Source: a bacterium (GTDB lineage: Bacteria; J088; JAWLBW01). Taken from it: a stretch of 61,830 nt of DNA. Of this stretch, positions 14,498 to 48,172 are shown piece by piece. Under the pieces are notes generated by a model. It was not told where the DNA came from. It ran no database searches and saw nothing but the letters and a program-made list of their open reading frames with translations. The DNA lies in the NCBI GenBank assembly GCA_041690355.1, contig JAWLHK010000027.1, forward strand, positions 1-61,830. Direction: 5' to 3'. The number at the start of each line of letters is the position of its first letter. Within the stretch, counting starts at the first letter, position 1. Made by a program: the position numbers and the translations under genes.

Positions 14498-17044
14498 ATG
14501 ACCCTCGCAACGGCCATCGATTCCTTCGTTCCGCTCACGCCCGATACGCCGGAAGTGCTGGGGCGCATCGGCGGCAAGGCGTGCGGCCTCGTGCGCCTGC
14601 TGCGGCATGGATTCCCCGTTCCCGAAGCCTGGGTGCTCGAGGCCCAGCCGGTTCCGGCCGACGAGATTGAACTTCCGCCGCCGCTGGCCGAGGCGGCCGA
14701 CGCCTTCTGGTCGGCGCTGCAGGGGGAACGTCCGGGGGCGCGCTTCGCCGTGCGCAGTTCCGCTACGGAAGAGGACCTCGACGACAAATCCTTCGCCGGT
14801 GTGTACCTGACGGTTCTCAACGTGTGCACGGCCGAAGAATTCCGCGCGGCCCTCCTGCGCTGCCGGGCGGCCCTGCACGGGCAGCAGGGGAAGGCCTACC
14901 GCCGCGCGCGGGGAACCGAGGGGCCGCCGCGCATCGCGCTCGTCGTGCAGCGCATGGTCGACGCCGAGGTGGCCGGCGTGCTCATGACGGCGAATCCGCT
15001 GCGGCCGCTCGCCGACGAGCTGGTGATCGACGCGTCCTACGGCCTTGGCGAAAGCGTCGTTTCGGGCCGCGTGCAGCCGGATCATCTCGTCGTGGCAAAG
15101 GGGGATGGCGCGATCCGCGAGGAGCGGCTGGGAACCAAGGAGTTCGCGCTCCGGTTCCGCGATGGAGCGACGGTGGAAGATTCGGTTCCGCAGGCGGAGC
15201 GGCACCGGCGTGCCCTGGCCGATGCGCAGGTCGCCGCACTGCAGAAGCTTGCGGCCGACGTGGAGGCGCGCATCGGGCCCCGCCAGGATTGCGAGTGGGC
15301 CTTCGAAGGGGAGCGGCTGTACGTGCTGCAGCAGCGGCCGATGACGGGACTGCCGCCCGCGGAACCGGAGCAGGTCTTTTCGCGCCGCTTCGGCGACGAG
15401 TACATCGCCGACTACACGCTGCCGCTCTCCTACACGGTGCTCATGCCGTGGATCAGTGAAACGTTTCTGGCGGAGTTTGCGCGCAGCTTCGGGTTTGCGC
15501 AGCGTCTCCGGCACCCGCCGACGGTGCGCCACGAAGGGTACGCCTACGTGAGCGGCGAGTTCGTGGCCCAGATGATGAGCGCCGTGCCGAAAGCGCTGCG
15601 GCGTACCGACGCTGTCGACTGGTTTCCGGAGATGTGGAACGAGCGGATCCGCCGCGAGCCGTTCCGCCCGTGGCAGCTCGGGCGCATGGCGTGGACGGCG
15701 TGGCGCGATCCGAAGTCCGACCTCCGGCGCAACCCGGCCGACCTCGAGGCCCACTGTGCGCGCGTTGCCGAGCTCCTGGTTCCGCGCCTGCGGCAGGAGT
15801 ACGCCGCGCTGTCCGAGGCGGATTGGGAGAACCAGTTCGCCGAAGCGATCCGGCTGGGCGAAGAGCACTTTCACGTCATCCGCTGGGGCATGGGATTCCA
15901 CAACCCGCTCCTGCACGGTTTTCTCCAGGATCTGCTGAAGCGCTGGGCGGATGACGACGGTTCTCTATACCAGGTTCTCATCAGCGGTCTTCCTCAAACG
16001 CGGACGGCCGAGGTGAATCGCGCCGTCTGGCGGCTGGCGCAGGCCGCCCGCGCCGATGCGGTCGTCCTCGCGCTGCTCGCGGAAAAGGCTCCGCATGCGC
16101 AGATGCGCGAGGCGACACCGGAGGCCGCGTTCTGGGGTGCCTTCGACGGCTTTCTGCGCGACTACGGCCACCGCGGCGCGACCCGCGACATCGCGCTGCC
16201 GCGCTGGTCAGAGACCCCCGACATCGTGCTGGGGCTGCTGCGCGCGCAACTTGCCGCGAACGCCCCCGACCCCGACGAAAGCGAACGCCAGGCCGCCGCG
16301 CGACGGAAGGCAGCCGAAGCGACGCTGGCGGAACGGATCGGATCGGGCATCGCCTCACGCGCGAAGCTGCGCATGATTCGCGAAGTTCTCGCGCTGGCGC
16401 AGACCTACACGGTCTACCGCGAGAACCAGCGCTTCTATCTGGATTACGTGCTGGCGCACATCCGCAACCTCGTGATCGAAGCCGGCGCGCGGCTGCACCG
16501 GCGGGGGGTGCTCGAGGAGCCGGACGATGTGTTCTTCCTCGAGAAGGCGGAATTTCTCGAGGTGCGCGCCCTTCCGGGGGCGACCGAGGAATTGCGGAAC
16601 CGCATCGGCGATCGGCGCGCGCACTTTCAGCAGTGGCGCCACCGGTTGCCGCCGACCTACCTGTTCGACGGCATCGCGGTCGAGGAGCAGCCTGCCGCTT
16701 CTGCGGCCTCGGTGCCCGCGGGGGCGCTCGCCGGTATGGCGGCGTCGATGGGGCAGGCGCGGGCCCGCGCCCGCGTCATCCGGAGTCTCGAGGAGCTGGA
16801 TACGGTGCAGGCCGGCGAGATCCTGGTCACGAGCAACACGGATCCCGGCTGGACGAGCGTCTTTCCCCTGCTGGCCGGTCTCGTCACTGCAACCGGCGGA
16901 ATTCTGAGTCACGGGGCGCTGCTCGCGCGCGAATACGGCATTCCGGCGGTCACGGGCGTCGTGGGTGCCGTCGACCTGATTCGCACCGGCGACCTGCTCG
17001 AACTGAATGCCGTGGAGGGATGGATCCGGAGAATTGACGATTGA
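14498..17044 (+). CDS. PEP-utilizing enzyme with rifampicin-phosphotransferase/PigC-like architecture (ATP-grasp, substrate domain, phospho-His swivel)
   Basis: IGGKA, AVRSSATEED...SFAG, VVQRMV, GLGESVVSG, EWA...LQQRP; C-terminal TDPGWT...GGILSHGALLAREYGIPAV. Confidence 0.9.
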   Translation: MTLATAIDSFVPLTPDTPEVLGRIGGKACGLVRLLRHGFPVPEAWVLEAQPVPADEIELPPPLAEAADAFWSALQGERPGARFAVRSSATEEDLDDKSFAGVYLTVLNVCTAEEFRAALLRCRAALHGQQGKAYRRARGTEGPPRIALVVQRMVDAEVAGVLMTANPLRPLADELVIDASYGLGESVVSGRVQPDHLVVAKGDGAIREERLGTKEFALRFRDGATVEDSVPQAERHRRALADAQVAALQKLAADVEARIGPRQDCEWAFEGERLYVLQQRPMTGLPPAEPEQVFSRRFGDEYIADYTLPLSYTVLMPWISETFLAEFARSFGFAQRLRHPPTVRHEGYAYVSGEFVAQMMSAVPKALRRTDAVDWFPEMWNERIRREPFRPWQLGRMAWTAWRDPKSDLRRNPADLEAHCARVAELLVPRLRQEYAALSEADWENQFAEAIRLGEEHFHVIRWGMGFHNPLLHGFLQDLLKRWADDDGSLYQVLISGLPQTRTAEVNRAVWRLAQAARADAVVLALLAEKAPHAQMREATPEAAFWGAFDGFLRDYGHRGATRDIALPRWSETPDIVLGLLRAQLAANAPDPDESERQAAARRKAAEATLAERIGSGIASRAKLRMIREVLALAQTYTVYRENQRFYLDYVLAHIRNLVIEAGARLHRRGVLEEPDDVFFLEKAEFLEVRALPGATEELRNRIGDRRAHFQQWRHRLPPTYLFDGIAVEEQPAASAASVPAGALAGMAASMGQARARARVIRSLEELDTVQAGEILVTSNTDPGWTSVFPLLAGLVTATGGILSHGALLAREYGIPAVTGVVGAVDLIRTGDLLELNAVEGWIRRIDD

Positions 17045-17063
17045 CGATTGACGATTTGCGATT
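17033..17063 (+). repeat. Heptamer tandem tract (ATTGACG)n overlapping a stop codon
   Basis: attgacg attgacg attgacg atttgcg att; TGA 17042-17044 is the CDS stop. Confidence 0.9.
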
Positions 17064-17077
17064 TCGCCAGGCAATCC

Positions 17078-17192
17078 CCCGTTCGTCCCGAGCTGACCGA
17101 ACGGAGCAGAGCGAAGGTCGACAGCGAGGGGCCGCGCTTGTCTCGCCGCCGTTCCCGACGCTGCCGTTCAACGTCAGCTCGCCGTGAACGGG
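17078..17192 (-). repeat. REP/MITE-like element, family D (copy 1)
   Basis: Terminal inverted repeats CCCGTTC...GAACGGG; the reverse complement aligns with 37011-37140 and 45228-45355. Confidence 0.8.
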
Positions 17193-17247
17193 TTCTTTCT
17201 TTTTTGGTGCTCAGCGCTTGGCGCTTTGCCCTGGAGATTGACGATCC

Positions 17248-18126
17248 ATGACTGACTCGATCCCCTTTGCCGCCGCCTGGCACGCGCGCGGCACGATGCG
17301 CGACGTGCACGGTCTGCGTGTGTTCACCGTGACCGGAGGAGACCTCGCGCGCGGCGTACCCGTGCTCTTTCTCCATGGATTTCCCTCCAGCTCCCTCGAT
17401 TGGCACCGGCTTGAGCCATTGCTTGGGGACCGGCCGCGTATCTTCTTCGATTTTCCCGGCTACGGATATTCCGCAAAACCCGAAGCCTACAGTTACTCCC
17501 TGTTCGAACAGGCCGATGTCGCCGAAGGGCTGCTGCGTCTTCTGGGAGTTGGGGAAGTGGATGTCGTCGCGCACGATATGGGAACCAGCGTCGCGTGCGA
17601 GCTCGCGGCCCGGAGCACCCGCGGACTGCTCTCGTTCCGGATGCGTTCGCTGGTGCTCATGAACGGGTCCGTGCGCCTGGAGCTCGCCAGCCTGACCCCC
17701 TCGCAGAAGCTGTTGCGGACCCGTCTGGGTCCATTCTTTGCGCGCCTGTCTTCGCGGCCCGTCTTCAAGGCGCAGATCCGGCGGATCCTTGCGCAGCCGG
17801 TGCCCGACGAGGAGCTGGAGGCGATGTGGCTGCTGCTCAAGCGCGAAGACGGCGTCCTGCGGCTGCCGCGGATCATCCGGTATCTGGAAGAACGCGTACG
17901 GTTTGCCGACCGGTGGATCGGCGCGCTTGGGCAGCTCGATTTTCCGCTCGGACTCGTGTGGGGACTCGAGGATCCGGTGGCCGTCCCCGCGATTGCCGAG
18001 CGCCTCGCGCGCGACGTTCCCGGTTCCGTCTTCATGCCGCTTCCCCACTTGGGCCACTATCCGCAGCTCGAGAACCCGGACGCGGTCTTCCGGGCCCTCC
18101 AGGCATACTGGGAACACGGGAAGTGA
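17248..18126 (+). CDS. Alpha/beta hydrolase (epoxide hydrolase/MEST-like)
   Basis: LHGFPSSS.DW; DFPGYGYSAKP; AHDMG nucleophile Asp; GHYPQLE. Confidence 0.92.
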   Translation: MTDSIPFAAAWHARGTMRDVHGLRVFTVTGGDLARGVPVLFLHGFPSSSLDWHRLEPLLGDRPRIFFDFPGYGYSAKPEAYSYSLFEQADVAEGLLRLLGVGEVDVVAHDMGTSVACELAARSTRGLLSFRMRSLVLMNGSVRLELASLTPSQKLLRTRLGPFFARLSSRPVFKAQIRRILAQPVPDEELEAMWLLLKREDGVLRLPRIIRYLEERVRFADRWIGALGQLDFPLGLVWGLEDPVAVPAIAERLARDVPGSVFMPLPHLGHYPQLENPDAVFRALQAYWEHGK

Positions 18127-18214
18127 CGAGTTACGAATGACGAGTGACGAATGCAAGCAAGGACATGGAAGTTCTCGCTTGATCGGTGCTCAGCGCTCAG
18201 CGCTTGGCGCTTTT
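18122..18214 (+). repeat. Composite heptamer element (TGACGAG tract, core, AGCGCTY tract), copy 1
   Basis: agtgacg agttacg aatgacg agtgacg ... gcaaggacatgga ... gtgctcagcgctcagcgcttggcgctttt. Confidence 0.85.
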
Positions 18215-18271
18215 CAGCTGTGCCCGACCCAATGGTGACTGCCGGCGCATGACCTGATAGCGTATAAAGCC

Positions 18272-18913
18272 ATGATCCCGTCTGCGAAAAAGGTTCTGAA
18301 GAAAATTCCGCTGCTCAAGGCGGGGGTCGAAGAAGCGCGCCACCAGGCCTCGCGGCGGCGCGTGAACGCCATCCTTCGCGGTGCGCCGCAGATCTTCGTC
18401 GAGCTTGGCGCCGGCGAGAAGAAGGGCGCCGGCGGATGGGTCACAGTCGACGTGTCGAAGCACTGCGACCTGTACTGGGACCTGCGCCGGGGGCTCCCGT
18501 TTCCGGACGAGTCCGTCGCCGGAATCTATTCGTCCCACTTCCTCGAGCACCTGACGTTCCGCGAAGCCGGAACGCTGCTGGCGGAGTGCCGCAGGGTTCT
18601 CGTTCCGGGCGGATTCTTCTCGGTCTGCGTGCCGAATGCGCGGCTGTATATCGATGCCTACCTGCAGCCCGCCGCCGACCGCGCCGATGCGCTCCTGCGC
18701 TACACGCCCGCCCGCAACGGCACGACGGCCATTGACTTTCTCAACTACATCGCCTACATGGACGGCCACCACAAGTATATGTTCGATGAGGAGAACCTGG
18801 TGCATATCCTGACCGCGAATGGGTTCCGCAATGCGCGACTGCGCCCGTTCGACGCGGCGCTCGATCGTCCCGAGCGCCGCGAGGAGTCGATTTACGCGGT
18901 CGCCCAGAAGTAG
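18272..18913 (+). CDS. Class I SAM-dependent methyltransferase (type 11-like)
   Basis: VELGAG; DLRRGLPFPDESV..IYSSHFLEHL; RVLVPGG..SVCVP. Confidence 0.88.
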   Translation: MIPSAKKVLKKIPLLKAGVEEARHQASRRRVNAILRGAPQIFVELGAGEKKGAGGWVTVDVSKHCDLYWDLRRGLPFPDESVAGIYSSHFLEHLTFREAGTLLAECRRVLVPGGFFSVCVPNARLYIDAYLQPAADRADALLRYTPARNGTTAIDFLNYIAYMDGHHKYMFDEENLVHILTANGFRNARLRPFDAALDRPERREESIYAVAQK

Positions 18914-18963
18914 CCTCTGCCCGGCCGCGCCGTGGAACCTGAATGGGAGACAAGGAGATTCCG

Positions 18964-19431
18964 ATGCAACCCTCGACCGCCCCCGATCCGCTCGGCCACC
19001 GCCTGCTGCAGCTCGGCATCCTGCTGTTCCTCATCGGTCTGCTTACGGGGTTCGCCGTTCCCGCGTTCGCAAATCCGCGCATGGGGCTGGCGAGCCACCT
19101 CGAGGCGATCATGAACGGCCTCTTTCTCGCCGTGCTCGGGCTGCTGTGGCCCCGGCTGAACCTCGCCCGCCGCTCGCTGAGGATTCTCTTCGTACTCGCC
19201 GTTTACGGCACCTTCGCCAACTGGGCGGCGACGCTGCTGGCGGCGATCTGGGGCGCGGGCGCGCCGATGATGCCCCTGGCCGCCACCGGATTCGAAGGGA
19301 GCTCGATTCAGGAGCTTGTCATCAAGGGGCTTCTCGGCACCCTCTCGCTGGCCATCGTGGGCGCGTCGGGCATGGTTCTCTGGGGCCTGCGCCTTGGGCC
19401 GGCGGCACACAGTCCGGGGGAAAAGCGCTAA
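18964..19431 (+). CDS. Styrene-oxide-isomerase (StyC)-like membrane protein
   Basis: AAGGAG RBS; G.LLFLIGLLTGF.VP.F.NPRMGLASHLE..MNG; four TM segments. Confidence 0.7.
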   Translation: MQPSTAPDPLGHRLLQLGILLFLIGLLTGFAVPAFANPRMGLASHLEAIMNGLFLAVLGLLWPRLNLARRSLRILFVLAVYGTFANWAATLLAAIWGAGAPMMPLAATGFEGSSIQELVIKGLLGTLSLAIVGASGMVLWGLRLGPAAHSPGEKR

Positions 19432-19520
19432 GCGCCAAGCGCTGAGCGCTGACCTGCAACGACGTGGCGCGCCTTGTTCTTGCCGGAAGATTCGTCACTC
19501 GTCACTCGTAACTCGTCATT
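19421..19520 (-). repeat. Composite heptamer element, copy 2 (inverted relative to copy 1)
   Basis: aaaagcgctaagcgccaagcgctgagcgct ... ccttgttcttgccggaa ... ttcgtcactcgtcactcgtaactcgtca. Confidence 0.85.
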
Positions 19521-19609
19521 TGTCCCGAAATCGTCAATCGTAAATCGTCGCTCGTCAATTCGCGTGTCCCGGAATCGTCAATCGTAAATCGTCACTCGTC
19601 AATTCGCGT
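19521..19609 (-). repeat. 44-bp tandem duplication containing (AATCGTC)n tracts
   Basis: tgtcccgaaatcgtcaatcgtaaatcgtcgctcgtcaattcgcg followed by a near-identical copy. Confidence 0.9.
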
Positions 19610-19797
19610 CATCCGCTGCGCTGCCCCGGCCGGTCGAGTTCTTCGTTGGGGCGGAGTTCTTCTTTGGGGGACAGATCGGCATCGACGTCGAGCCCCGGTT
19701 GCGGCTGGGTTCCGTGACGGCGGACGGCCCGCGCGGCCGCCTCGCGAAGTTCAGCGAGGGATTCTTCTTTTTCCAGTTGTTCGCGATCTCCGGCCAT
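19609..19797 (-). CDS. Small charged hypothetical protein (62 aa)
   Basis: AAGGAG RBS 7 nt before ATG; hydrophilic sequence. Confidence 0.55.
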   Translation of the reverse strand: MAGDREQLEKEESLAELREAAARAVRRHGTQPQPGLDVDADLSPKEELRPNEELDRPGQRSG

Positions 19798-19871
19798 GAG
19801 TCGTCTCCTTGAATGGATTCATGGTGACGGAGCGGGCCTTCACGGTTCGAAGGTGGGCGGTCGAAGGGCGA

Positions 19872-20131
19872 GTGCGACCCCGCCGGGGTCGTGTCGGAAA
19901 TCGGGGGCGTTCGTGCTCAAGAGTGGGACCCCGCCGGGGTCCTTCATTGTACCTGCGGGCCCGAACCGATGTGAAGCTACGGGACCGTCGAGGAGTGGCT
20001 GATCGGCGCGCACGGAATGCGACGATGCTGGTTCGCAAGGGCACAAGCTGAAGGCACTTCCTCTTCGAATCCCTCTTCGAACCCCTCTTCGGGTCCCCCT
20101 TCGGGTCCCCCTTCGGGGGACGACAGGGGGG
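19872..20131 (+). repeat. REP-like cluster: two GACCCCGCCGGGGTC palindromes plus a 12-bp tandem repeat; related to the reverse complement of 41776-41965
   Basis: Palindromes at 19876-19890 and 19926-19942; ttcgaatccctc/ttcgaacccctc/ttcgggtccccc/ttcgggtccccc at 20064-20111. Confidence 0.75.
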
Positions 20132-20140
20132 CTCGCAGGG

Positions 20141-20232
20141 AAAAGCGCCAAGCGCCAAGTACTAAGCGCCAATCAAGAAGAACGTGGGTTTCCTTGCCCT
20201 TGCCGAAAACTCGTCACTCGTCACTCGTCACT
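20141..20232 (-). repeat. Composite heptamer element, copy 3
   Basis: aaaagcgccaagcgccaagtactaagcgcc ... tccttgcccttgccgaaa ... ctcgtcactcgtcactcgtca; contains the stop of CDS 20228-23299. Confidence 0.85.
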
Positions 20233-23200
20233 CTCCAAGGATCCTCACTTTCCGCCCGGTGATGCCGCTCGCGGCGCGCAGGCCCGACATGACTGCCGCT
20301 TCGACACAGCCCGCGTTGATGCCGGTCTTCGTCCAGTCGCCCGCGAGAAAGAGATTGTCAAAGCCGGATTCGTCGGCGGGCAGGCGGTATTTCGTGCTCC
20401 CCTTCACGCTCAACACATAGCGCTCGGTCGGATCGATGTTTACGCGGAAGTACTGCGCGCGGAACCGGTCGAGGCCCGTGCCGCCCGCCGGATCGATCAG
20501 CTTCGCGTAATCGAGCGCCGGCGTTTCCGGGTTCACAGCTTTGGGCCAGAGGTGGCCCGTGTATTTCTCGAACCAGGCGCGGGCGACCTCCTGCAGGCGA
20601 TCGAGTTCCCGCTGGGGAAAGCCATGATCGCTGTAGGGGGGAATTACGGGTGCGTCCTGAAACGGTCCGCAGTGATAGGCAATGTTCTTCGGTTCCGCGC
20701 CGGCCGGCCAGGCCTCGCGCACGATCAGATTCGACATGTCGGCCCAGGTGTTCAGCGGCTGCGCATAGGCGTCCAGGACCGTGCGCGGATACTTCCACCC
20801 GAGTTCTTCCGTGTCAGGGTGGAACCAGAGCTGGACGGCCAGCGTCTGCACGGTTTTCACCTGGTGCAGCATGTTGGCCCAGTCCTGCCGCGCGCTCACG
20901 AGTTCGCCGCAGATCTCGGGCAGCGCGGCCAGCGAGATGCCGAGGATGACGTCGTCGAAATCCTCTTCCTGCCAGAGCGTGATCTCTTCCACGTCGGTCC
21001 ACGGGGTCCACGCGCTCTCGAGGTTGATCCCGTGCGCCTGCAACTGCGGACCCTCGACCAGCTGATCGTAGAGCGGATGGCTCGGCCAGCAGGGGAGGTC
21101 CTTCACATCCACCAGGGGTTCGTACGTCGCGTTCTTGAGCGTCGCCTGGCGGCCGAGGACGATGGAATCGATGGAGCGCTTGTCGGCCGACAGCTTGAGC
21201 TGCTTGACCTTGTGGAAGAACTGGAAGTTCACGCCGCGCCGCTTCAGGACTTCGTAGAGCGGCGTGAAGACGACGTCGCCCATCCCCGCCTGCATCTTCC
21301 AGAAGATGGCCCCTTTGTAAGTGAAGGCCATGCGCAGGCATCCGCGCAGGGCGGTGCCGGCGGCGAGATTCGGGCGGTCCGTGTCGCCGCTCTCGTATCC
21401 GAAGACGAGATCGTAGACGCCGCGGATCGGCGCCGAGCGTAGCGTCAGTTCCGACGCATCGTGGCGGCGGAGCCACTCGATGAAGTCCCAGCGGTCGATG
21501 TGGTCGAAGCCGCGCAGCACGACCTCGTCGTCGATCATGCCGCGGATCATGGTGTAGCCCATGTCCATCAGAATCCACAGGCGGCGCGCCTCTTCGTTCT
21601 GTTCCACCTCGTCTTCGATCAGGCGCCACAGCCAGTCGATGAACCCGTCGAGCAGCTGAAGCACGAGAAAGCGCTGTGCGCCCGGTTCCCCCGAGATCGC
21701 TTTCGCGAGGCGCAGCGCGCCATAGAGCAGGGCGGTCGAACCGGCATTGATGACGGTGGTCGCGAAGTCTTCGGCAAAGTCGCGGATGGCGTTCAGGCCG
21801 GGGAGATCCCAGAGTCCGCTGCTGGATGCGGGAACCGGATCGACGACGGGGTAGGAGGAACCCTGCAGCGCTTCAATCATCCACTCCAGAAGCATCTGTA
21901 CGTAGTCCCACGGTTCGGGGAGCAGATCGCCGTCGCCGGGGAGCTCGTCGTTGTTCGGGAAGTTGAAGTTCCAGTGGAACCAGCGGTCGCCGACCTTTTC
22001 TTCGAGCGTGATGAAGTTGTGCTCCTTGAAGGCGTCGCGCCAGGTGGCGAGGGGCTTGCCGGGTTCGCGTCCCCATTCCGCATAGGCCTCGCGCATGACG
22101 CGGAAGGCGTTGTCGTAGAAGCCGAGCCAGATGTGCAGGCCGTGCTCCTCGATCCGCTCCCCGAACTGCGGATTCCGTCCGCTGGCCCCCTTGCCGCCGA
22201 GGCGCCATCCCATCTGGAAGACCGTGATCTCGTACTTGTCCTTCCAATCGGGCTCCGACGTGAGCGACCAGACGGCCGAGAGCGCCCCGACGCCGCCGCC
22301 GAGCACGGCGATCTTCCGGCGCACGGGCGGATTCTGGGTGCGCCAGAGTTCGCGTCCCGTCTCCATGTTGAAGTCGTAGTCGACCCAGGCGGAAAGCCGC
22401 ACCGGCTGCGGGCCCGCCTGCAGGCCGAGCTCCTGCGCGACCGGATGGCTGTCGAGCTGCGCGATCGTCAGCTGATAGTCCCCGAGGCTCAGGCCGCCGC
22501 CGCGGAATTCGGTGACGGTTGCCGGCGCTTCGGCAATGGACTGGTAACAGGCCTGGCGCGGCTGGGCCACGTCGCGGAACTGTTTGAGGAACGCAATGGA
22601 AACCTGCGGCTGCAGAAAGGCCGGCAGGGGAATGGCGTCGGCGAAACCGGGCAGAGTTAGACTGCCGCTCCCCCCCGTGAACAGGTTCGCGACGGCGTCC
22701 GCGGCCTCGTTCAGGTTCGTCCAGACGGTCTCTGGGGTCCCCGGAGGGGCGTCGGCGATCCGTTCCACCGCGAGCAGGCGATAGGGTTTTCCCTCGGCCG
22801 TCGGTGCGAACCGCTCGAAGCCGACCGTGTCGACCGTCAGGCGATCGGGCGCGCGGAAGTCGCTGGGGAGCGTGAAGGTCCCCATCGCCTTGTGAAAGCC
22901 GTAGACCTCGCGGCCGGCGGCCATGGCGTAGGCGTTGTCGACGAAGAGATACGGGTTGAACCAGCGGAAGCGATCGGGGAGCCAGAGGCCTGCAATCCGC
23001 TTCAGGCCGATGAGCGGAACCCAGAAGGCGACGTCGACCTCGGGCATCCAGCCGATGTTGCGGTCCACCGGATCGCTGGAGGTGATCGAGGCGATGTCGG
23101 CCAGGGTCAGCATGACGAACGGCGCTGCGACGACATACCGCACGTTCCCCTCGGCGGGCTCGTTCAGGTACTTGTCGCAGGTACGCTGCAGCGCGGCGTA

Positions 23201-23299
23201 ATCGGCGTCGAGGAAGAAGGCATTGAGCTTCACACCCTTCATCACGTACGGCTGACGGAAGACCAGCTCGCCCCCGCGATCCACATACTGTCCGGCCAT
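20228..23299 (-). CDS. Fusion of an acetoacetate-decarboxylase-like domain and an FAD-dependent oxidoreductase (phytoene desaturase/amine oxidase-like)
   Basis: N-terminal PYLFVDN..AMAAGREVYGF.K and AFLKQFRD; central KIAVLGGGVG, RLGGKGASGR, EEHGLHIW.GFY; C-terminal LFLAGDWT...AGCVEAAVMSG. Confidence 0.88.
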   Translation of the reverse strand: MAGQYVDRGGELVFRQPYVMKGVKLNAFFLDADYAALQRTCDKYLNEPAEGNVRYVVAAPFVMLTLADIASITSSDPVDRNIGWMPEVDVAFWVPLIGLKRIAGLWLPDRFRWFNPYLFVDNAYAMAAGREVYGFHKAMGTFTLPSDFRAPDRLTVDTVGFERFAPTAEGKPYRLLAVERIADAPPGTPETVWTNLNEAADAVANLFTGGSGSLTLPGFADAIPLPAFLQPQVSIAFLKQFRDVAQPRQACYQSIAEAPATVTEFRGGGLSLGDYQLTIAQLDSHPVAQELGLQAGPQPVRLSAWVDYDFNMETGRELWRTQNPPVRRKIAVLGGGVGALSAVWSLTSEPDWKDKYEITVFQMGWRLGGKGASGRNPQFGERIEEHGLHIWLGFYDNAFRVMREAYAEWGREPGKPLATWRDAFKEHNFITLEEKVGDRWFHWNFNFPNNDELPGDGDLLPEPWDYVQMLLEWMIEALQGSSYPVVDPVPASSSGLWDLPGLNAIRDFAEDFATTVINAGSTALLYGALRLAKAISGEPGAQRFLVLQLLDGFIDWLWRLIEDEVEQNEEARRLWILMDMGYTMIRGMIDDEVVLRGFDHIDRWDFIEWLRRHDASELTLRSAPIRGVYDLVFGYESGDTDRPNLAAGTALRGCLRMAFTYKGAIFWKMQAGMGDVVFTPLYEVLKRRGVNFQFFHKVKQLKLSADKRSIDSIVLGRQATLKNATYEPLVDVKDLPCWPSHPLYDQLVEGPQLQAHGINLESAWTPWTDVEEITLWQEEDFDDVILGISLAALPEICGELVSARQDWANMLHQVKTVQTLAVQLWFHPDTEELGWKYPRTVLDAYAQPLNTWADMSNLIVREAWPAGAEPKNIAYHCGPFQDAPVIPPYSDHGFPQRELDRLQEVARAWFEKYTGHLWPKAVNPETPALDYAKLIDPAGGTGLDRFRAQYFRVNIDPTERYVLSVKGSTKYRLPADESGFDNLFLAGDWTKTGINAGCVEAAVMSGLRAASGITGRKVRILGE

Positions 23300-24299: not shown

Positions 24300-24614
24300 A
24301 TGGCGGTTCTTCCCGAGTTCTTTCGCGGAATCACTTATTTCGAGTGGGACGAAGGCAACGCGGCGAAGAGCTGGACGAAGCACGCGGTGACGCAGCCTGA
24401 AGCGGAGCAGGGTTTTTTCAACCGGCCGATCCTGGTTACAGACGACCAGGCGCACTCGGTTGAGGAACGGCGGCACTTTGCATTGGGTGTAACGGATTAC
24501 GGCCGGCCCCTGCTGATCGTGTTCACGCTGCGGCCCCCCGCACTGCGGGTGATATCGGCGCGGCCCATGCGCCGGAGGGAACGGTTGATTTATGAAAAAG
24601 CCGAAGCAGAATAA
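24300..24614 (+). CDS. brnT: BrnT family toxin
   Basis: FEWDEGN..K...KH.V...EAE..F; HS..E.R..ALG; VFTLR...RVISAR.M...ER..YE. Confidence 0.92.
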   Translation: MAVLPEFFRGITYFEWDEGNAAKSWTKHAVTQPEAEQGFFNRPILVTDDQAHSVEERRHFALGVTDYGRPLLIVFTLRPPALRVISARPMRRRERLIYEKAEAE

Positions 24615-35673: not shown

Positions 35674-35699
35674 GCGTCCCTTCTGCAAGGAGCTTCCCC

Positions 35700-36086: not shown

Positions 36087-36100
36087 GGGCGTGCTCCGTG

Positions 36101-36215: not shown

Positions 36216-36241
36216 ACTGATTTTCAAGGCGATCGCGCGCC

Positions 36242-36958: not shown

Positions 36959-36959
36959 G

Positions 36960-37211: not shown

Positions 37212-37218
37212 GGTCTAC

Positions 37219-38556: not shown

Positions 38557-38765
38557 AGAGGCGCCGGGAAAAAGGGTTTGCTGTTCAGAATGGCACGCCC
38601 GCACACCGATGGCAATACGGCTGCCGTGCGAGGGGAAATGAGGAAATCGCCGGGCGGCCTGTCCGCAACATCGCCACTGGAATTGGGGTCCGGACTAATG
38701 CCTACCGGTTTGATAGGATAATGCGCAAATCAAAGCATATTATCTTGGTGTTGTATGCGGTGGGG

Positions 38766-38774
38766 TGATATAAT
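38766..38774 (+). promoter_or_regulatory. Extended -10 promoter element of the oxidoreductase operon
   Basis: TGATATAAT (TGn-TATAAT) in an AT-rich region about 35 nt before the ATG. Confidence 0.6.
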
Positions 38775-38809
38775 AAGTCTTTTCTCTTACTCCTCTGGTG
38801 TTCGTGTTT

Positions 38810-40654
38810 ATGGATCAGGCAACCAAGGTCGTTGAAAAGCGGGAGGCGGTGGTCATCCGCTTTGCAGGCGATTCCGGCGACGGAATGCAGCTCACCGGCA
38901 CGCAGTTCACGCAGGAATCGGTCATGGCCGGCAACGACATCGGCACGCTGCCTGATTTTCCCGCCGAAATCCGCGCGCCGACCGGTACGCTCGCGGGCGT
39001 GAGCGGCTTCCAACTGCAGTTCGCCAGTTACGACATTTACACCCCTGGCGATGCGCCCGATGTGCTCGTCGCGATGAATCCGGCCGCGCTGAAGCTGAAT
39101 CTCCCCGACATGGTCGCGGGATCGATCCTGATTCTGAACAGCACCGCGTTCGTCCAGAAAGCCTGCGAAAAGGTGGGGTTCGCCTCCAATCCGCTGGAAG
39201 ACGAAGCGTTCCGCCACAAGTACCGCATCTACGCGGTCGACATGAACAAGCTCACGGCCGGCGCGGTCGAAGGCATGGATATCACCGGCGGCGCGCGCAC
39301 GATCGACCGCATGAAGAACATGTTCGCGCTCGGCCTGGTCAGCTGGATGTTCCACCGCCCGCTGGACGTGACCGTCGAGGGGCTCAAGCGTAAGTTCGGA
39401 TCCAAGCCCGAGATTCTCGAGGCGAACCTGCGCGTCCTGAAAGCCGGCTTCCACTACGGCGAGACGGCCGAGATCTTCACGCACTCCTACGAAGTGCCGG
39501 CCGCGAAGATTCCCGCGGGCACCTACCGCTCGATCACGGGGAATGCGGCGACGGCCTACGGGTTCATCACGGCCGCGCGTAAGGCCGGGCTCAAGCTGTT
39601 TCTCGGCAGCTACCCGATCACGCCGGCCAGCGACATTCTGCACGAGCTGTCGCAGTACAAAAATTACGACGTTCTCACCTTCCAGGCTGAGGACGAAATC
39701 GCGGCGGTCGGCGCGGCCATCGGCGCCGCCTTCGGCGGGCACATCGGGCTCACGACCTCGTCGGGTCCCGGCGTCGCGCTGAAGCAGGAGGCGATCAGCC
39801 TGGCCGTCATGGCCGAACTGCCGCTCGTCATCGCGAACATCCAGCGCGGCGGGCCGAGCACGGGGCTGCCGACCAAGACCGAGCAGGCCGACCTGCTGCA
39901 GGCCATTCTCGGCCGGCATGGGGAATCGCCGGTGCCGGTCATCGCCGCCTCGACCCCGGCCGACTGCTTTGACGCCGCCATCGAAGCGGTGCGCATCGCC
40001 GTCAAGTACATGACGCCCGTCTTCTTTCTCTCTGACGGCTATCTGGCCAACGGGGCCGAACCGTGGCAGATTCCCGACGTCGCGGCGATTCCCGAGATTC
40101 CGGTCACCTTCCGCACCGAACCCGAGGGGTTCCAGCCCTACGGCCGCGACGAGCAGACGCTCGCGCGCCCCTGGGTGCGCCCGGGTACGCCGGGTCTCGA
40201 GCACCGCATCGGCGGCCTCGAGAAGGAGTACGGTTCGGGCATGGTGAGCTACTCGCCCGAGAACCACGAGCGCATGGTGCACACGCGCGCCGCGAAGATC
40301 CGCGCCATCCGGCAGGACATCCCGCCCACGGAGGTCTTCGGTGACGAGCGCGGGGGATTGCTCGTACTCGGCTGGGGAAGCACGTACGGCGCGATCCGCT
40401 CGGCCGTGCGCGAGGGGCGCGCGAAGGGCAAGAAGGTATCGCACGCGCACCTGCGCTGGATGAACCCGCTGCCGGCGGATCTCGAGACGGTGCTCAAGCG
40501 TTACGACACGGTCCTCATTCCCGAAATGAACCTCGGCCAGCTGCGCATGCTCGTGCGCGCCGAGTATCTCATCCCGGCCGTGGGGCTGAACAAGGTGAAG
40601 GGCCGCCCGTTCACCAAGAGCGATATTCTGGAAAAGATTGAGGAGCTGGCCTGA
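38810..40654 (+). CDS. korA: 2-oxoacid:ferredoxin oxidoreductase subunit alpha (substrate not determinable)
   Basis: FAGDSGDGMQL; FPAEIRAP; YPITPAS; QAEDEIAA; QRGGPSTGLPTKTEQ; EMNLGQL. Confidence 0.95.
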   Translation: MDQATKVVEKREAVVIRFAGDSGDGMQLTGTQFTQESVMAGNDIGTLPDFPAEIRAPTGTLAGVSGFQLQFASYDIYTPGDAPDVLVAMNPAALKLNLPDMVAGSILILNSTAFVQKACEKVGFASNPLEDEAFRHKYRIYAVDMNKLTAGAVEGMDITGGARTIDRMKNMFALGLVSWMFHRPLDVTVEGLKRKFGSKPEILEANLRVLKAGFHYGETAEIFTHSYEVPAAKIPAGTYRSITGNAATAYGFITAARKAGLKLFLGSYPITPASDILHELSQYKNYDVLTFQAEDEIAAVGAAIGAAFGGHIGLTTSSGPGVALKQEAISLAVMAELPLVIANIQRGGPSTGLPTKTEQADLLQAILGRHGESPVPVIAASTPADCFDAAIEAVRIAVKYMTPVFFLSDGYLANGAEPWQIPDVAAIPEIPVTFRTEPEGFQPYGRDEQTLARPWVRPGTPGLEHRIGGLEKEYGSGMVSYSPENHERMVHTRAAKIRAIRQDIPPTEVFGDERGGLLVLGWGSTYGAIRSAVREGRAKGKKVSHAHLRWMNPLPADLETVLKRYDTVLIPEMNLGQLRMLVRAEYLIPAVGLNKVKGRPFTKSDILEKIEELA

Positions 40655-40655
40655 C

Positions 40656-41657
40656 ATGACCGCCCCTGTTGCCTTGACGAAGAAGGATTTCGAGACCGCC
40701 AACGACGTGCGCTGGTGCCCGGGCTGCGGCGACTACGCCATCCTGGCCAACATGCAGCGCACGCTTCCCGATCTCGGGATTCCGCGCGAGCAGACGGTAT
40801 TCATCTCGGGGATCGGCTGCTCGAGCCGCTTCCCCTACTACATGAACACGTACGGCTTCCACACGATCCACGGCCGCGCGCCGACGATCGCCACGGGGCT
40901 CAAGCTGTCGCGCCCGGAGCTGAGCGTGTGGATCATCACCGGCGACGGCGATGCGCTGTCGATCGGCGGCAACCATCTGATCCACCTGCTGCGGCGCAAT
41001 CCGAACGTGCAGCTGCTGCTGTTCAACAACCGCATCTACGGGCTGACCAAGGGGCAGTTCTCGCCGACGAGCGAAATCGGCAAGAAGACCAAGAGCAGCC
41101 CGATGGGGACGGTCGACGCGCCGTTCAACCCGATTCAGCTCACGTTGGGCGCCGGCGCGAGCTTCGTCGCCCGCTCGGTTGACATCGAGGCAAAACACCT
41201 GCAGGACATGCTCAAGCGGGCCCACGGCCACCGTGGCGCAAGCTTCGTCGAGATCCTGCAGAACTGCCCGATCTTCAACGATGGCGCCTTCGACGCGGTG
41301 ACCGACAAGGCCACCAAGGCCGACATCGTACTACAGCTCGAGCACGGCAAGCCGATGCTGTACGGCAAGGAGCGCAACAAGGGGATCCGTCTCGTGAACG
41401 GCACGCTCGATGTCGTGACCCTCGGCGAGAATGGCGTGACCGAAACCGATATCCTGGTCCACGATGAGGCGAATCTCTCGCAGGCCTTCCTGCTCGGCGG
41501 CCTGCACCTCCCGGTTCCCGTCGGCGTCTTCTACCGGGTGGAACGTCCGGTGTACGAGGACCTCCTCAACGGTCAGGTAGCCGAAGCCAAGGAAAAGAAG
41601 GGCGACGGCGATCTGCAGCAGCTCGTCAACGGCGCGAGCACGTGGACCGTTCCTTGA
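40656..41657 (+). CDS. korB: 2-oxoacid:ferredoxin oxidoreductase subunit beta
   Basis: WCPGCGD; SGIGCS; GDGD; NNRIYGLTKGQFSPT. Confidence 0.96.
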   Translation: MTAPVALTKKDFETANDVRWCPGCGDYAILANMQRTLPDLGIPREQTVFISGIGCSSRFPYYMNTYGFHTIHGRAPTIATGLKLSRPELSVWIITGDGDALSIGGNHLIHLLRRNPNVQLLLFNNRIYGLTKGQFSPTSEIGKKTKSSPMGTVDAPFNPIQLTLGAGASFVARSVDIEAKHLQDMLKRAHGHRGASFVEILQNCPIFNDGAFDAVTDKATKADIVLQLEHGKPMLYGKERNKGIRLVNGTLDVVTLGENGVTETDILVHDEANLSQAFLLGGLHLPVPVGVFYRVERPVYEDLLNGQVAEAKEKKGDGDLQQLVNGASTWTVP

Positions 41658-41965
41658 ATTGACGATTGACGATTTACGATTGACGATTTGCCGGAACGTA
41701 CCTTGTGCAGCCCAAGGTACTCGTGTGTTGGGCATTGTCCATCGGGCATTGCCGAAGGTCTGATTGACGATTGACGCCCCCCCCTGTTGTCCCCCGAGGG
41801 GGACCCGAAGAGAAGGGCGTCTGCTCTTCGCGCGAGCGGATGACACAGCGCTGCGTCTGATCGGCCGCGCGTTGCGCAGCGGCCGACCGGTCACCCCGAC
41901 GTCGCATCCCTCAGGCTACCGTGGCGATGGTTTTCGACCCCAGCGGGGGCGCACTTCTGAGTAGC
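41656..41965. repeat. (ATTGACG)n tracts (41658-41689, 41763-41776) and an inverted relative of the 19915-20131 repeat
   Basis: attgacg attgacg atttacg attgacg att; cccccctgttgtcccccgagggggacccgaaga; gaccccagcgggggcgcacttctgag. Confidence 0.75.
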
Positions 41966-42022
41966 CCCGACGAGCCACCCGTTGTTTTTGCCCTTCCTCG
42001 GCCCGCAGGGCGGATCGGGCCG

Positions 42023-42232
42023 TCACAGGGCCTCGCGCAGCTCCACGAGCGGTTCACCCGCTTGCAGCAACGCTATCGCCTGCCTGAAGGTATGCGCGAG
42101 CGCTTCGCGCATTCGCGCGTTCGATGTGTTTCCCAGCGTAACCAGGAGGACTTGAGGGGGCGGTCCGAACTTCTCGAGCAGACGGAGAAAATCGCTGTCC
42201 TTCGTCATTACCGATGCGCCGGCGCTGCGCGC
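42023..42232 (-). pseudogene. 5'-truncated DUF5615-family (VapC45-like) PIN toxin remnant
   Basis: ARSAGASVMTKDSDF...GPPPQV..VTLGNTSN...GEPLVEL; in-frame TGA just upstream; N-terminal catalytic region and antitoxin absent. Confidence 0.75.
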
Positions 42233-42295
42233 TGAAAGCGGACCCTCCCCGAAATCTGTCGATCATGCGTACGGAGAACAAACGCTCTTCGACAG

Positions 42296-42350
42296 ACGAC
42301 CGGCAACTAAAGACTTAGGACTGACGGCTGAAGACTCCCGACTGACGACG
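42296..42350 (-). repeat. Degenerate (GACTGAM)n heptamer tract
   Basis: aactaaa gacttag gactgac ggctgaa gactccc gactgac gac. Confidence 0.7.
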
Positions 42351-43073: not shown

Positions 43074-43100
43074 CGATGGCCGATGGCCGATGGTCGATGG
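43074..43100 (+). repeat. (CGATGGC)4 heptamer tract
   Basis: cgatggc cgatggc cgatggt cgatgg, 15 nt after the GST stop. Confidence 0.85.
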
Positions 43101-44686: not shown

Positions 44687-44730
44687 GGCATATCTTATTC
44701 CACTTGGTCTCCGGAGTCGAGCGTCCGCAT

Positions 44731-45481
44731 CAGTCCTTAGTCATCAGTCTGAAGTCGTCAGTTTTCAGTCGCAGGTTGCAGTCGTCCGCCTGGACCCCCA
44801 GCGGCCAGCATAGAGCGCGTTCGAGAGACCCAAACATCCCACGCGGAGGCGCGGAGAGGAAAGAACCGGAAAGAGCGCCTTCTTCTTCGGGACGTGACAA
44901 CCGTGGGCGCACGTTCGAAAGAGGTATGCGTCCTTGCTGTGTATTTACTTCTCTCCGCGACTCCGCGGCTCCGCGTGCCGATCGCCCTTCGCCCTTGCCG
45001 AGTGCCCAGCGCCCGGCGCGTGCGAAAGACCCAAACATCCCACGCGGAGGCGCGGAGAGGAAAGACCGGAAAGAGCGCCTTCTTCTTCGGGACGTGACAA
45101 CCGTGGGCGCACGTTCGAAAGAGGTATGCGTCCTTGCTGCGTATTTACTTCTCTCCGCGACTCCGCGGCTCCGCGTGCCGATCGCCCTTGCTGTCTGCGC
45201 AGCCCTCAGCGTCCAGCGTGCCCAAGCCCGCTCATGTCGAGCCGACGGTCGAAGCCAGGGCCGGAGACGCCGGCGAGACAGGCGCCTGGATGCCCAGGCG
45301 CGCTCACTCGCTGTCGCGCTCACGCTGTTGCGCGCGGTCAGCTCGGGACGAACGGATCGCTGGGCGGTCCCTCGCTGATCGCTCTCACGCCGTCGCGCTC
45401 CGTTCTGCTGCGCGTCAAGGCGGGAGGTCCAGGCGGGTCCTTGCCGATGACTGAAGACTGATGATTGACGACTGACGACTG
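44731..45481. repeat. 750-bp non-coding nested repeat island
   Basis: Inverted (CAGTCNT)n tracts at both ends; direct repeats 44826-44989 and 45027-45189; family D element 45228-45355. Confidence 0.9.
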
Positions 45482-46947: not shown

Positions 46948-47919
46948 TCACAAGCGTTCCGTCACCGCCAGCACCCGCTCCGTCACGCCTGCCGCCCGGC
47001 CCATGACGCCATTCAGGGTCTGCTGCCAGCGGGGCGTCGCCTGCGGATCGGGGGGGAAGAGGAGATCGATGCTGCGCTCGTTCACCTCGTGCAGCCACGG
47101 CGGCGCGCGGAACAGCCCGGGCAGCTCGTTGCGGAAGTGCCCCATCTGCGTCATCAGCTCCACCTGCTTGGCCAGGCCCTGGTGGAAGGAGGCGTTCGTG
47201 TCGATGCCCAGCGTATCCATGGCGTCCCGCACGAGGATGGAGCCCCAGAGAATGAACGTGTTGATCTTGATCTGGAACGCCTGCAGCTTGAGCCCCTCCC
47301 ACCGGGTCAGCTTGGAGAGCAGCTTCGGCAGGTACATCACGCCGAGACCGACGTGGCGCGCTTCATCCCGCTCGAAATAGGGCATGAGTTCGCACAGCAC
47401 CGGTTCGACGCCGCTCTTCGCGACCGCCTTGAAGAGGTTCACGGCCACGTTCTCGACGAGCAGCTGCATGCCGAGCAGCTTGTAGACGAGCGACGGGGTC
47501 TCGAGCAGATCGAGCAGCACCGCCCGGGTGAATGCGTCGACGGGGGGGAGCTCGATGTCGAGGGCGAGCAGGTAGTCGCGCATCGTGTAGAAGTGGCGCG
47601 CCTCGTCGAAGACCTGCCCCGAGGCGGCCATCTTGGCCTCGACATCCTCCAGCTGTTCTGCCAGGTCGGCGCTGATGGTCCAGGCGGCCAGTTCGCCCCA
47701 GAGAATGATCGTGAACACCTGGCCGATCGCCTTCTTCTTCTCCGGGGGGATATCAATGCGTCCGCCATTTCGCGCGAGCGCTTCGCGGAGGAGGGCCCGC
47801 CCGTCCCAGGCCAGCTGCTGCCCCTTGTGATACAGCCGCTCGAGCCGGGCGTGCTGCTGCTGCGCCTCGGCGAGGTAGTCGCGCTCCATCAGGCGGTACG
47901 GGGGAAATGTGCGGTTCAT
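46948..47919 (-). CDS. Ferritin-like di-iron protein
   Basis: GELAA...DEARH and VENVA...DEARH paired carboxylate/His motifs. Confidence 0.88.
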   Translation of the reverse strand: MNRTFPPYRLMERDYLAEAQQQHARLERLYHKGQQLAWDGRALLREALARNGGRIDIPPEKKKAIGQVFTIILWGELAAWTISADLAEQLEDVEAKMAASGQVFDEARHFYTMRDYLLALDIELPPVDAFTRAVLLDLLETPSLVYKLLGMQLLVENVAVNLFKAVAKSGVEPVLCELMPYFERDEARHVGLGVMYLPKLLSKLTRWEGLKLQAFQIKINTFILWGSILVRDAMDTLGIDTNASFHQGLAKQVELMTQMGHFRNELPGLFRAPPWLHEVNERSIDLLFPPDPQATPRWQQTLNGVMGRAAGVTERVLAVTERL

Positions 47920-47976
47920 GGCGCCTCTGCTCCAGCCTAGTGCAGACCCGCCGGGAAGGAAACGGGGGAACACTTC

Positions 47977-48103
47977 AATTTACGATTGACGATTTACAAT
48001 TGACGATTTATTCAAGTGACGAGTGACGAGTTACGAGTGACGAGTTTCCGGCAAGGGCCAGGATCACCACATCCTTGTTGCTTGGCGCTTAGTGCTTGGC
48101 GCT
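47977..48103 (+). repeat. (ATTGACG)n tract plus composite heptamer element, copy 4
   Basis: atttacg attgacg atttaca attgacg; agtgacg agtgacg agttacg agtgacg; ttccggcaagggccagga; gcttggcgcttagtgcttggcgct. Confidence 0.88.
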
Positions 48104-48142
48104 GTCCCGAAGGATGTGCGGGTCGCCGGCCCGTTCCGGCTC

Positions 48143-48172
48143 AAGAATCAGGTATCAGGAATCAGGAATTCA
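48143..48172 (-). repeat. (ATTCCTG)n tract containing the UbiA-family stop codon
   Basis: aagaatc aggtatc aggaatc aggaatt; stop at 48162-48164. Confidence 0.85.

Follow-up and report, generated by a model that had tools for sequence, protein, structure and literature searches.

Which kind of element are the short tandem tracts of seven-nucleotide units that recur between the genes of an uncultured bacterium, and how did they come to be there? We addressed this question for a 61,830-bp contig (the window; contig C27 of genome G000), which belongs to an assembly of 4.64 Mb in 42 contigs with a GC content of 65.6%. A preliminary description of the window had sorted such tracts into at least seven unrelated families, regarded them as marks of gene ends at the junctions of accessory genes, and proposed an undescribed system whose generating or recognising component is encoded elsewhere. 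All listed tracts proved to be real and lie where they had been placed or a few bases away, the weakest being those at 42290-42349 (62% matches) and 44728-44786 and the GCGC-core units near 17200. They are probably local copies of a genome-wide, mosaic family of intergenic heptanucleotide repeats, of the same kind as the short tandemly repeated repetitive (STRR) sequences of cyanobacteria and the heptameric simple sequence repeats (SSRs) of Xanthomonas and Nostoc. STRR sequences have been known since 1990 as several families of tandem heptanucleotides that are dispersed in non-coding DNA and whose function is unknown.

The comparison set for the window's genome consisted of G001, a different species from the same family with a nucleotide identity of about 70%, and three members of the same phylum, to which G002 and G003 also belong; the lineage is poorly sampled. 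Tandem Repeats Finder returned 82 rows for the window, 27 of them with period 7, and all of these lie between 17033 and 50103. We then counted exact runs of at least the period plus 10 bases (hereafter tracts) across the 4.64 Mb and found 432 at period 7, as opposed to 8, 77, and 25 at periods 5, 6, and 8; the longer periods 9, 10, 11, and 12 gave 97, 8, 16, and 111. Runs of at least three exact copies number 121 at period 7, 13 at period 6, and 2 at period 8. Among the Tandem Repeats Finder rows that fall mostly outside gene calls, 549 have period 7, 17 period 6, and 84 period 8, and rows of periods 6, 9, and 12 are mostly coding. Period 7 is thus clearly commoner than periods 5, 6, and 8, as the preliminary description had implied, and the excess is far above chance and highly non-random. 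The tracts are present on nearly all contigs. When exact arrays of at least 15 bp are counted, there are about 700, and they occupy 307 of the 1972 spacers of at least 50 bp (15.6%). Exact runs are short, with a median of 2.4 units and a maximum of 10.6.

The 432 tracts reduce to 67 canonical units, three of which account for 217 tracts: ATTGACG (90), AGTGACG (equivalent to TGACGAG; 66), and ATTCCTG (61). ATTGACG, AGTGACG, ATTTACG, AGTTACG, and AATGACG are one-base variants, as are ATTCCTG and ATTCTTG, so that the count of seven unrelated families was overstated. A second class of units is GC-rich and has a palindromic core (AGCGCTY/GGCGCTT, CGGACGT, CCGGCGT). That the period is kept while the unit varies was borne out both by the 67 units and by G001, whose arrays use others (AACGCGG, GGATTGT, TTCAGAC-like, CTGCGAT, AATCCAC, CCTCCGA). 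The outward strands of families A, B, C, F, and G begin with A(T/G)T, which is weak evidence given seven possible rotations and the relatedness of the families. Direct 7-nt repeats, a period-7 excess in non-coding DNA, and several dispersed unit families are the features of heptanucleotide SSRs of the STRR type, and all of them are found here.

The tracts fill spacers of every type. Co-directional spacers hold 185 tracts (0.60 per kb of spacer), convergent spacers 93 (0.98 per kb), and divergent spacers 72 (0.58 per kb); 78 tracts lie within gene calls, mostly near an end, and 4 at contig ends. The convergent preference is just 1.6-fold. The two commonest families, A (ATTGACG-type) and B (AGTGACG-type), abut starts and stops in ratios of 56:50 and 41:41, and with these ratios and densities the view that the tracts mark gene ends does not hold. 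The ATTCCTG family favours stops (53:14), and tracts in tandem spacers come within 5 nt of a stop in 26 cases and of a start in 9. A stop codon falls inside a tract in 42 of the 3690 genes in our gene set. Clustering is moderate, with a variance-to-mean ratio of 2.6 per 20 kb and 69 pairs of adjacent spacers both occupied versus 47 expected. Arrays on both flanks were found for 34 of the 3690 genes (about 20 expected). We rejected these as a special class, since they are of ordinary size (median 354 aa versus 303) and only one encodes a protein of family PF05635, discussed below.

The orientation of the tracts is far more regular. Of 210 A/B/C-type tracts, 172 (82%) have their written, TGA-bearing strand leading out of the nearer gene and into the spacer, and this polarity holds in convergent, divergent, and both classes of tandem spacers. 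Counted by family, tracts pointing away from and towards the gene number 84:22, 67:15, 58:9, 17:4, 18:4, 11:3, and 11:0. Next to the flanking gene, whether at its start or its stop, are the AT-richer units (ATTGACG, AGTGACG, ATTCCTG, AGTCTTC, and variants of these); towards mid-spacer come the GC-rich units whose core is palindromic (AGCGCTY, CGGACGT). A reading of TTGACG as a -35 box was dropped because families B and C lack TTGACG and obey the same rule. Stop codons on the outward strand were likewise rejected as the general cause of polarity, because the TGA strand of AGTCTTC faces the gene, which leaves its outward strand stop-free (11:0), and because the published Xanthomonas unit GGGAATC has no stops. 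The rule itself is not new. Rehm et al. (2015; PMC4692102) state for heptameric SSRs (GGGAATC in Xanthomonas, GGGGAYT in Nostoc PCC 7120) that the repeats are nearest the 5' neighbouring open reading frame (ORF) whatever its orientation, and that repeats downstream of an ORF follow its coding strand and can overlap its stop, whereas those upstream are on the non-coding strand.

Arrays are moreover joined into larger units. Across the 147 spacers with at least two tracts we observed a recurring layout of a gene, inward A/B/C arrays, central GCGC-core arrays, A/B/C arrays pointing the opposite way, and a gene. When window positions 14498-23299 were compared with the genome by BLAST, more than 40 further places proved 70-97% identical to its array-linker-array stretches. 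A pattern search for an A/B array with a GCGC-core array 15-75 nt beyond it gave 89 places, and in 77 of these the two are separated by a linker of 30-60 nt with the shared sequence ..A(T/G)TT(T/G)CCGGCAAGG(A/G)C .. CCTTGCC..GT(T/C), so that the genome holds at least 77 copies of the module. Four are in the window (18124-18212, 19423-19521, 20143-20233, and 48015-48103). The recurrence of shared linkers between arrays at no fewer than these 77 places argues that whole modules have been copied, which on the sequence evidence appears preferable to arrays arising separately at each site. A linker hairpin with covariation seemed evident by eye and failed on testing: the median folding z-score is -0.47, with 15 of 77 linkers below -2, and RNAalifold on the gappy linker alignment gave no structure.

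The individual arrays of the window, delimited with Tandem Repeats Finder and in places by reading the sequence, fit this picture of intergenic elements that may touch gene ends. On the plus strand, an ATTGACG array of 3.4 units (17033-17056) passes into degenerate ATTTGCG/ATTT units (to 17063) and encloses the TGA stop (17042-17044) of a PPDK-like gene (14498-17044). The GCGC-core units GTGCTCA GCGCTTG GCGCTTT (17200-17226), recognised by eye and below a Tandem Repeats Finder score of 30, lie 20 nt 5' of the start of a hydrolase gene. The stop of that gene is the first TGA of the next array, 4.3 TGACGAG/TGACGAA units (18124-18153) that open a full plus-strand module (18124-18212; C27:18143-18198 in the module search) and are followed by a linker with ..GCAAGGAC.. 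and a GCTCAGC/GCGCTTG array (18186-18212; AGCGCTY tract 18188-18204). Two modules are on the minus strand. One (19423-19609; C27:19444-19499) consists of ATTGACG/ATTTACG arrays from 19603 down to 19521, including the ATTGACG tract 19573-19603 and carrying a 44-bp higher-order repeat in two copies, then TGACGAG from 19520 to 19492, the linker, and four AAGCGCT units from 19450 to 19423 that contain the TAA stop of a convergent 162-aa gene. The other (20143-20233; C27:20150-20218) has 3.6 TGACGAG units from 20233 to 20209, which supply the stop of a 1023-aa gene (20228-23299), the linker, and 4.3 AAGCGCC units from 20172 to 20143. In the same neighbourhood, a 62-aa ORF on the minus strand (19609-19797) is enclosed by heptamer modules; it has 74% nucleotide identity to a stretch of G001 (C221:310-474) and belongs to no Pfam or NCBIfam family. 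The array-bearing spacer 3' of the 1023-aa gene also holds a 12-bp repeat, CCTCTTCGAATC, in 4.7 copies (20060-20115).

Further along the window, 5.1 plus-strand ATTCCTG units (35601-35636) stand unpaired between two predicted hairpins, and a plus-strand AGTCTTC-type array of 6.6 units (36960-37005) begins 2 nt from the start codon of a minus-strand SDR gene. Arrays of GCGTCGA (3.7 units) and CCAGGGA (2.6 units; 37189-37206) together span 37147-37206 and adjoin the stop of an M20 peptidase gene. On the plus strand, ATTGACG in 4.4 units (41658-41688) begins directly 3' of the POR-beta stop, and a second ATTGACG array of 2.1 units follows at 41762-41776. A degenerate plus-strand CGACTGA-type array (8.6 units, 42290-42349) lies 68 nt 5' of a GST gene, and 3.9 CGATGGC units (43074-43100) occupy the convergent spacer between this gene and an RPE65-like gene. 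Near the start of the latter, degenerate plus-strand NNCAGTC units (44728-44786) form the inverted partner of 4.7 plus-strand GACTGAN units (45446-45481) 5' of a 191-aa gene; these two arrays and the one at 42290-42349 are also of the AGTCTTC type. The 873-bp divergent spacer between these two genes also contains a 200-bp unit in 1.9 copies (44815-45189, 97% identity), which is bracketed by the inverted CAGTC/GACTG arrays and has neither an Rfam match nor a convincing ORF. Finally, the spacer at 47978-48169 is wholly filled with arrays: plus-strand ATTTACA/ATTGACG and AGTGACG (47978-48045, the TGACGAG tract being 48015-48045), the linker, GCGC-core units (48080-48103), and minus-strand ATTCCTG (48141-48169) abutting the stop of a UbiA gene. 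As had been described, the tracts lie between genes or right at a gene's end: the stop of the adjacent gene is included in the arrays at 17033, 18124, 19423, and 20209-20233, the array at 41658 begins just after a stop, and that at 36960 begins 2 nt from a start codon. The ileS-ppc and gmhA-tuf blocks were also confirmed to be free of tracts, save two GC-rich coding rows of period 7 (30321 and 31936). Apart from the arrays, the window carries a 104-aa ORF (41921-42235) that has a match in G001 (C337) and no Pfam or NCBIfam family, and a CopG-family antitoxin gene (24592-24924; E 5e-29) with no obvious toxin partner among the called neighbours.

Comparison with G001 separates the history of the arrays from that of the genes around them. 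Window positions 34208-41538 are syntenic with G001:C163:424-8044. Within this block the SDR/M20 spacer measures 260 bp in G000, where it carries arrays, and 115 bp in G001, where it carries none; in the DUF302/SDR spacer it is G001 that has arrays (AACGCGG) and G000 that lacks them; and 3' of the POR-beta stop both genomes have arrays, of different units and degenerate in G001. At least one position is therefore occupied by different units in the two genomes. The arrays therefore turn over faster than gene order. G002 and G003 have no tract of at least 17 bp in 100 kb each.

The same comparison bears on whether the arrays mark sites of accessory-gene acquisition. This part of the preliminary description is supported for one block, the hydrolase, methyltransferase, and 162-aa genes at 17.2-19.4 kb, which have no orthologue in the four phylum relatives; their best matches there are paralogue-like genes at 25-38% identity, or none. 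As a general statement it fails: the window's 11 array-bearing spacers are flanked by 22 genes, of which 11 match G001 at the DNA level, close to the proportion for the entire window (lack of such a match at 70% identity being a weak proxy for gene absence, as ppc also has none), and the arrays at 35601, 36960, and 37189 are inside the syntenic block. Four tRNA genes are clustered at 60900-61349. Because the matching G001 cluster follows about 1.5 kb after the POR genes, window positions 41.7-60.9 kb are inserted or rearranged relative to G001. A separate stretch at 5000-8000 is low in GC (58-60% versus 65.6%) and carries an 856-aa RCC1-repeat gene (5451-8021) with atypical codon usage and no G001 DNA match, which looks horizontally acquired.

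A role of the arrays in processing transcripts had also been suggested. Of ten array stretches of the window folded as RNA, eight have z-scores between -0.56 and +1.46 and fold no better than shuffles, so that this role found no support and the arrays are predicted to be unstructured as RNA. The strong structure at 35567-35700 (z -3.67) consists of two hairpins beside the unpaired ATTCCTG array. One is a perfect hairpin with a 13-bp stem (35572-35600; GGGACACCGGTGA..TCACCGGTGTCC) directly 3' of a rhodanese stop; the ATTCCTG array follows it, and then comes a terminator-like hairpin with a T-tract. The terminator scan of the window placed no site on any array, no U-tract follows the GCGC arrays, and Rfam matched only the four tRNAs in the window. 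An intrinsic terminator combines a GC-rich hairpin with a U-tract and occurs at 3' ends only, and the folding z-scores, the terminator scan, and the equal use of starts and stops all differ from that description.

As a candidate partner of the arrays we tested PF05635/TIGR02436, the four-helix-bundle family of the 23S rRNA intervening-sequence protein, which resembles Avd of diversity-generating retroelements (DGRs). In G000, 10 matches exceed the PF05635 cut-off, and none is on the window's contig, in agreement with the earlier statement that the window has no four-helix-bundle gene. Three copies are near-identical, one has an internal stop, and two are truncated at the N-terminus. All five proteins tested reached TIGR02436; the Avd model gave 35 bits against a cut-off of 80, and among solved structures the nearest is that of Xanthomonas campestris XCC0516 (2GSC, E 4e-24). 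Of the 10 genes, 8 have a period-7 tract (14 bp or longer) no more than 200 nt away, versus 684 of 3690 genes overall (binomial p ~4e-5), and tracts flank 4 of 10 on both sides versus 64 of 3690 (binomial p ~2e-5). The cassettes formed by gene and arrays differ in unit (ACGTCCG, CGCTGGG, AATGGTC, AAATGCC, AATCAGG, ATTGACG). In G001, four of five PF05635 genes are bracketed, two judged from exact runs and two by eye in degenerate arrays. Related paralogues of the two genomes keep related units (AATGGTC/AATGGCC, and AAATGCC in both), with almost no similarity beyond the gene. Of the near-identical copies and the copy interrupted by a TAA, three fall in a stretch of 11 kb of contig C5 (69058-79674), flanked by ACGTCCG or CGCTGGG arrays, and one lies without arrays at C2:371993-372310; the cassette looks like a recent duplication. 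Two further PF05635 genes (L005 on C23 and L009 on C20) are within about 200 nt of a tRNA gene.

The inverted arrays around PF05635 genes resemble the stem arrangement of 23S intervening sequences. A DGR or intervening-sequence context was nevertheless rejected for the G000 genes: eight of the loci were without an rRNA match, no reverse transcriptase gene lies beside a PF05635 gene (the sole RVT_1 gene is on C18, a contig without PF05635), and the Avd score is below the cut-off.

The association extends beyond this lineage. We examined 80 PF05635 loci from Acidobacteriota, Planctomycetota, Gemmatimonadota, Bacteroidota, Chloroflexota, Pseudomonadota including Lysobacteraceae, a cyanobacterium, and others, where tracts number 1.31 per kb up to 300 nt from the gene and 0.114 per kb beyond 1 kb. 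Compared with 614 neighbouring ORFs, arrays were found upstream of 34 of the 80 genes (44 of the ORFs), downstream of 25 (65), and on both sides of 13 (10). This enrichment is weaker for period 8 and absent for period 6. Nine of the 13 doubly flanked loci carry inverted copies of one unit, one carries direct copies, and three carry different units; in 9 of 29 cases the downstream array overlaps the PF05635 stop. At loci of other phyla (L059-L132) the upstream arrays are often G-rich on the sense strand (GGGGCTG, GGGGTTG, AGGGGAC, GGATTGA), the downstream arrays are their complements and contain TAA or TAG, and units recur in cassettes across phyla. Cassettes that share a unit have slightly more alike proteins (identity 0.519 versus 0.495, permutation p 0.0005), which shared descent of whole cassettes would also explain.

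At the level of genomes, PF05635 is present in 52 of the 121 searched. We compared 16 carriers (15 of the 17 genomes with at least five matches, omitting G000 and G122, plus G001) with 17 non-carriers (the first 15 genomes without a match, plus G002 and G003). Median period-7 density is 9.1 per 100 kb in carriers versus 2.0 in non-carriers (one-sided Mann-Whitney p 0.0005, ignoring phylogeny). Pooled carriers have 9.98 tracts per 100 kb at period 7 and 3.7, 5.5, and 3.2 at periods 5, 8, and 10; pooled non-carriers show no excess, with 2.84 at period 7 and 2.84, 3.23, and 2.91 at those periods. In a search of the open-access literature, which does not extend to subscription journals, no publication connected heptamer repeats to four-helix-bundle genes. 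The proposal that a partner is encoded elsewhere gains circumstantial but controlled support from the PF05635 association. The family is the best lead to such a partner, and its proteins may bind the arrays, make them, or merely have their genes land in them.

Placed beside known repeats, the G000 arrays are of the same kind as cyanobacterial STRR sequences and differ from them in phylum and units. Elements of another type, the repetitive extragenic palindromic (REP) sequences and bacterial interspersed mosaic elements (BIMEs), are enterobacterial mosaics of imperfect palindromes of 20-40 nt and are associated with REP-associated tyrosine transposases (RAYTs). G000 arrays resemble them as small, abundant intergenic mosaics of recurring motifs in set orientations, but are built from direct 7-nt tandem arrays. 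A RAYT as mobiliser is not supported: no period-7 tract lies closer than about 1 kb to the sole Y1 transposase gene (PF01797; C3:284649-284990). This gene is flanked by GGCC-type hairpin repeats and CGATGGC-like units, and it may be a RAYT accompanied by a REP family of its own, separate from the main heptamers. Clustered regularly interspaced short palindromic repeats are ruled out, since they combine repeats of 24-48 nt with unique spacers of similar length and the present units are contiguous and 7 nt long. For comparison with miniature inverted-repeat transposable elements, the arms of the array-bearing spacers point inwards and are often of differing families, and the only close relative is about 70% identical.

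Two published parallels are close. With the Xanthomonas and Nostoc SSRs the G000 arrays share 7-nt tandem units, few copies per array, a location that is about 90% intergenic, and the polarity rule, and the G000 unit GATTCCT differs at a single position from the complement of GGGAATC (Rehm et al., 2015; PMC4692102). Unlike those SSRs, the G000 units are neither G-rich nor able to form G-quadruplexes, many families occur side by side and are built into fixed modules around a conserved linker, and the host comes from a high-GC lineage that is uncultured and poorly sampled. The TAACTGA direct repeats found in Beggiatoaceae, cyanobacteria, and Bacteroidetes are likewise intergenic heptamer arrays (2-6 copies) with stops on one strand, occasional overlap with ORF ends, and other heptamers mixed in, and strains differ by 7-nt indels (MacGregor, 2015; PMC4679880). 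Their stop-bearing strand mostly faces a nearby start codon, whereas the main G000 families are directed away from the gene nearest to them, AGTCTTC/GACTGAA being the one family that matches TAACTGA in this respect. With both the phenomenon and its placement rule described in these papers, the label of an undescribed system cannot be kept.

How, then, might such a family have arisen? Plain SSRs produced by independent replication slippage, without any system or function, would account for the shortness of the arrays, for the turnover of units between relatives, and for the 7-nt strain indels of TAACTGA reported in PMC4679880. Slippage alone leaves unexplained why period 7 is 17- to 50-fold more frequent than periods 5 and 8, why three units make up half of all tracts, why linkers are shared, and why 82% of tracts obey one polarity; this reading is already disfavoured, and we regard it as very improbable. 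Much the same low probability attaches to transcript-end signals, that is, terminators, RNA-processing sites, or stabilisers at gene 3' ends. The convergent enrichment, the excess of tracts close to stops in tandem spacers, and the stop preference of ATTCCTG point that way, but divergent spacers are as densely occupied as tandem ones, families A and B are equal at starts and stops, most stretches fold no better than shuffles with the one strong structure beside its array, and U-tracts after GCGC arrays are missing. Scars or recombination sites of gene acquisition at accessory-gene borders are slightly less improbable, though still unlikely: the genes without orthologues at 17.2-19.4 kb are separated by arrays, arrays are clustered, and the region from 41.7 kb is rearranged relative to G001; against this stand the conserved half of the flanking genes, the arrays within the syntenic block, the ordinary nature of genes with arrays on both flanks, and the more conserved positions of Xanthomonas repeats noted in PMC4692102.

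A dedicated trans-acting system is the most serious alternative, and we regard it as possible while doubting it. PF05635 (Avd-like) proteins would bind or template the heptamer unit of their own cassette, with units specific to paralogues, and solo arrays would be cis-sites or by-products. The bracketing of cassettes across phyla relative to neighbouring ORFs, the genome-level association, the different units of different G000 cassettes, the related units of G000 and G001 paralogues, and the slightly more alike proteins of unit-sharing cassettes all speak for it, and predicted unstructured single strands are what a binding platform would be. Binding of protein to array is, however, suggested by sequence association; the difference in protein identity is small and explicable by shared descent; G000 has no cassette with units of family B or of the GCGC-core family; three of the ten G000 genes are broken or truncated; some genomes break the association (G054, G012, and G025); and cassettes that merely insert into arrays would give the same pattern. 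In its widest form, with arrays as the cis-elements of a widespread two-part system whose PF05635 protein binds or propagates its cassette's own unit and seeds solo arrays from cyanobacteria to Xanthomonas to the G000 lineage, the proposal is similarly tentative.

We therefore return to the genome-wide mosaic family of intergenic heptanucleotide repeats as the preferred explanation. Several observations weigh against it or against the figures behind it. Our gene set was home-made (3690 genes, 88% coding, longest-ORF starts) and is crude. The left and right arms of a spacer are often from different families, and complementary variable triplets in the linker (8 of 27 versus a permuted mean of 5.5) do not support a hairpin. 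Neither target-site duplications nor terminal inverted repeats turned up, although no search was aimed at them, and no mobilising enzyme was identified, the sole Y1 transposase gene being flanked by GGCC hairpins and not by the main heptamers. An explanation by stop codons breaks down for AGTCTTC and for GGGAATC of Xanthomonas. The genome-level comparison sampled 38-200 kb per genome (38-100 kb for all but G001), uncorrected for phylogeny or GC, and has exceptions: G054 has six matches and no tract in 80 kb, and G012 and G025, both low-GC, have no match and 11-13 tracts per 100 kb. The window is array-rich without a PF05635 gene, and arrays outnumber such genes by about 70 to 1.

With these reservations, the mosaic family could have formed as follows. 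Modules would spread as units, by copying or recombination, because independent slippage at each site would not give the module pattern. Arrays may then lengthen and shorten in 7-nt steps and would be retained only where genes stay undisrupted. Since most units carry TGA or TAA on the outward strand, an array can overlap the end of a gene and supply its stop, as in the 42 genes counted above. Unit sequences would change quickly between lineages.

Tandem heptanucleotides of bacteria have been known for about 35 years without an accepted origin or function. G000 offers a rich example outside the usual taxa, and its roughly 700 arrays, in fixed modules of strict polarity, favour the copying of whole modules over site-by-site slippage. 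The link to PF05635, tested here with controls, turns the heptamer question into a concrete one, namely whether the protein binds the repeat that flanks its gene. If the two-part system were true, it would explain how a fixed period can go together with an interchangeable sequence.

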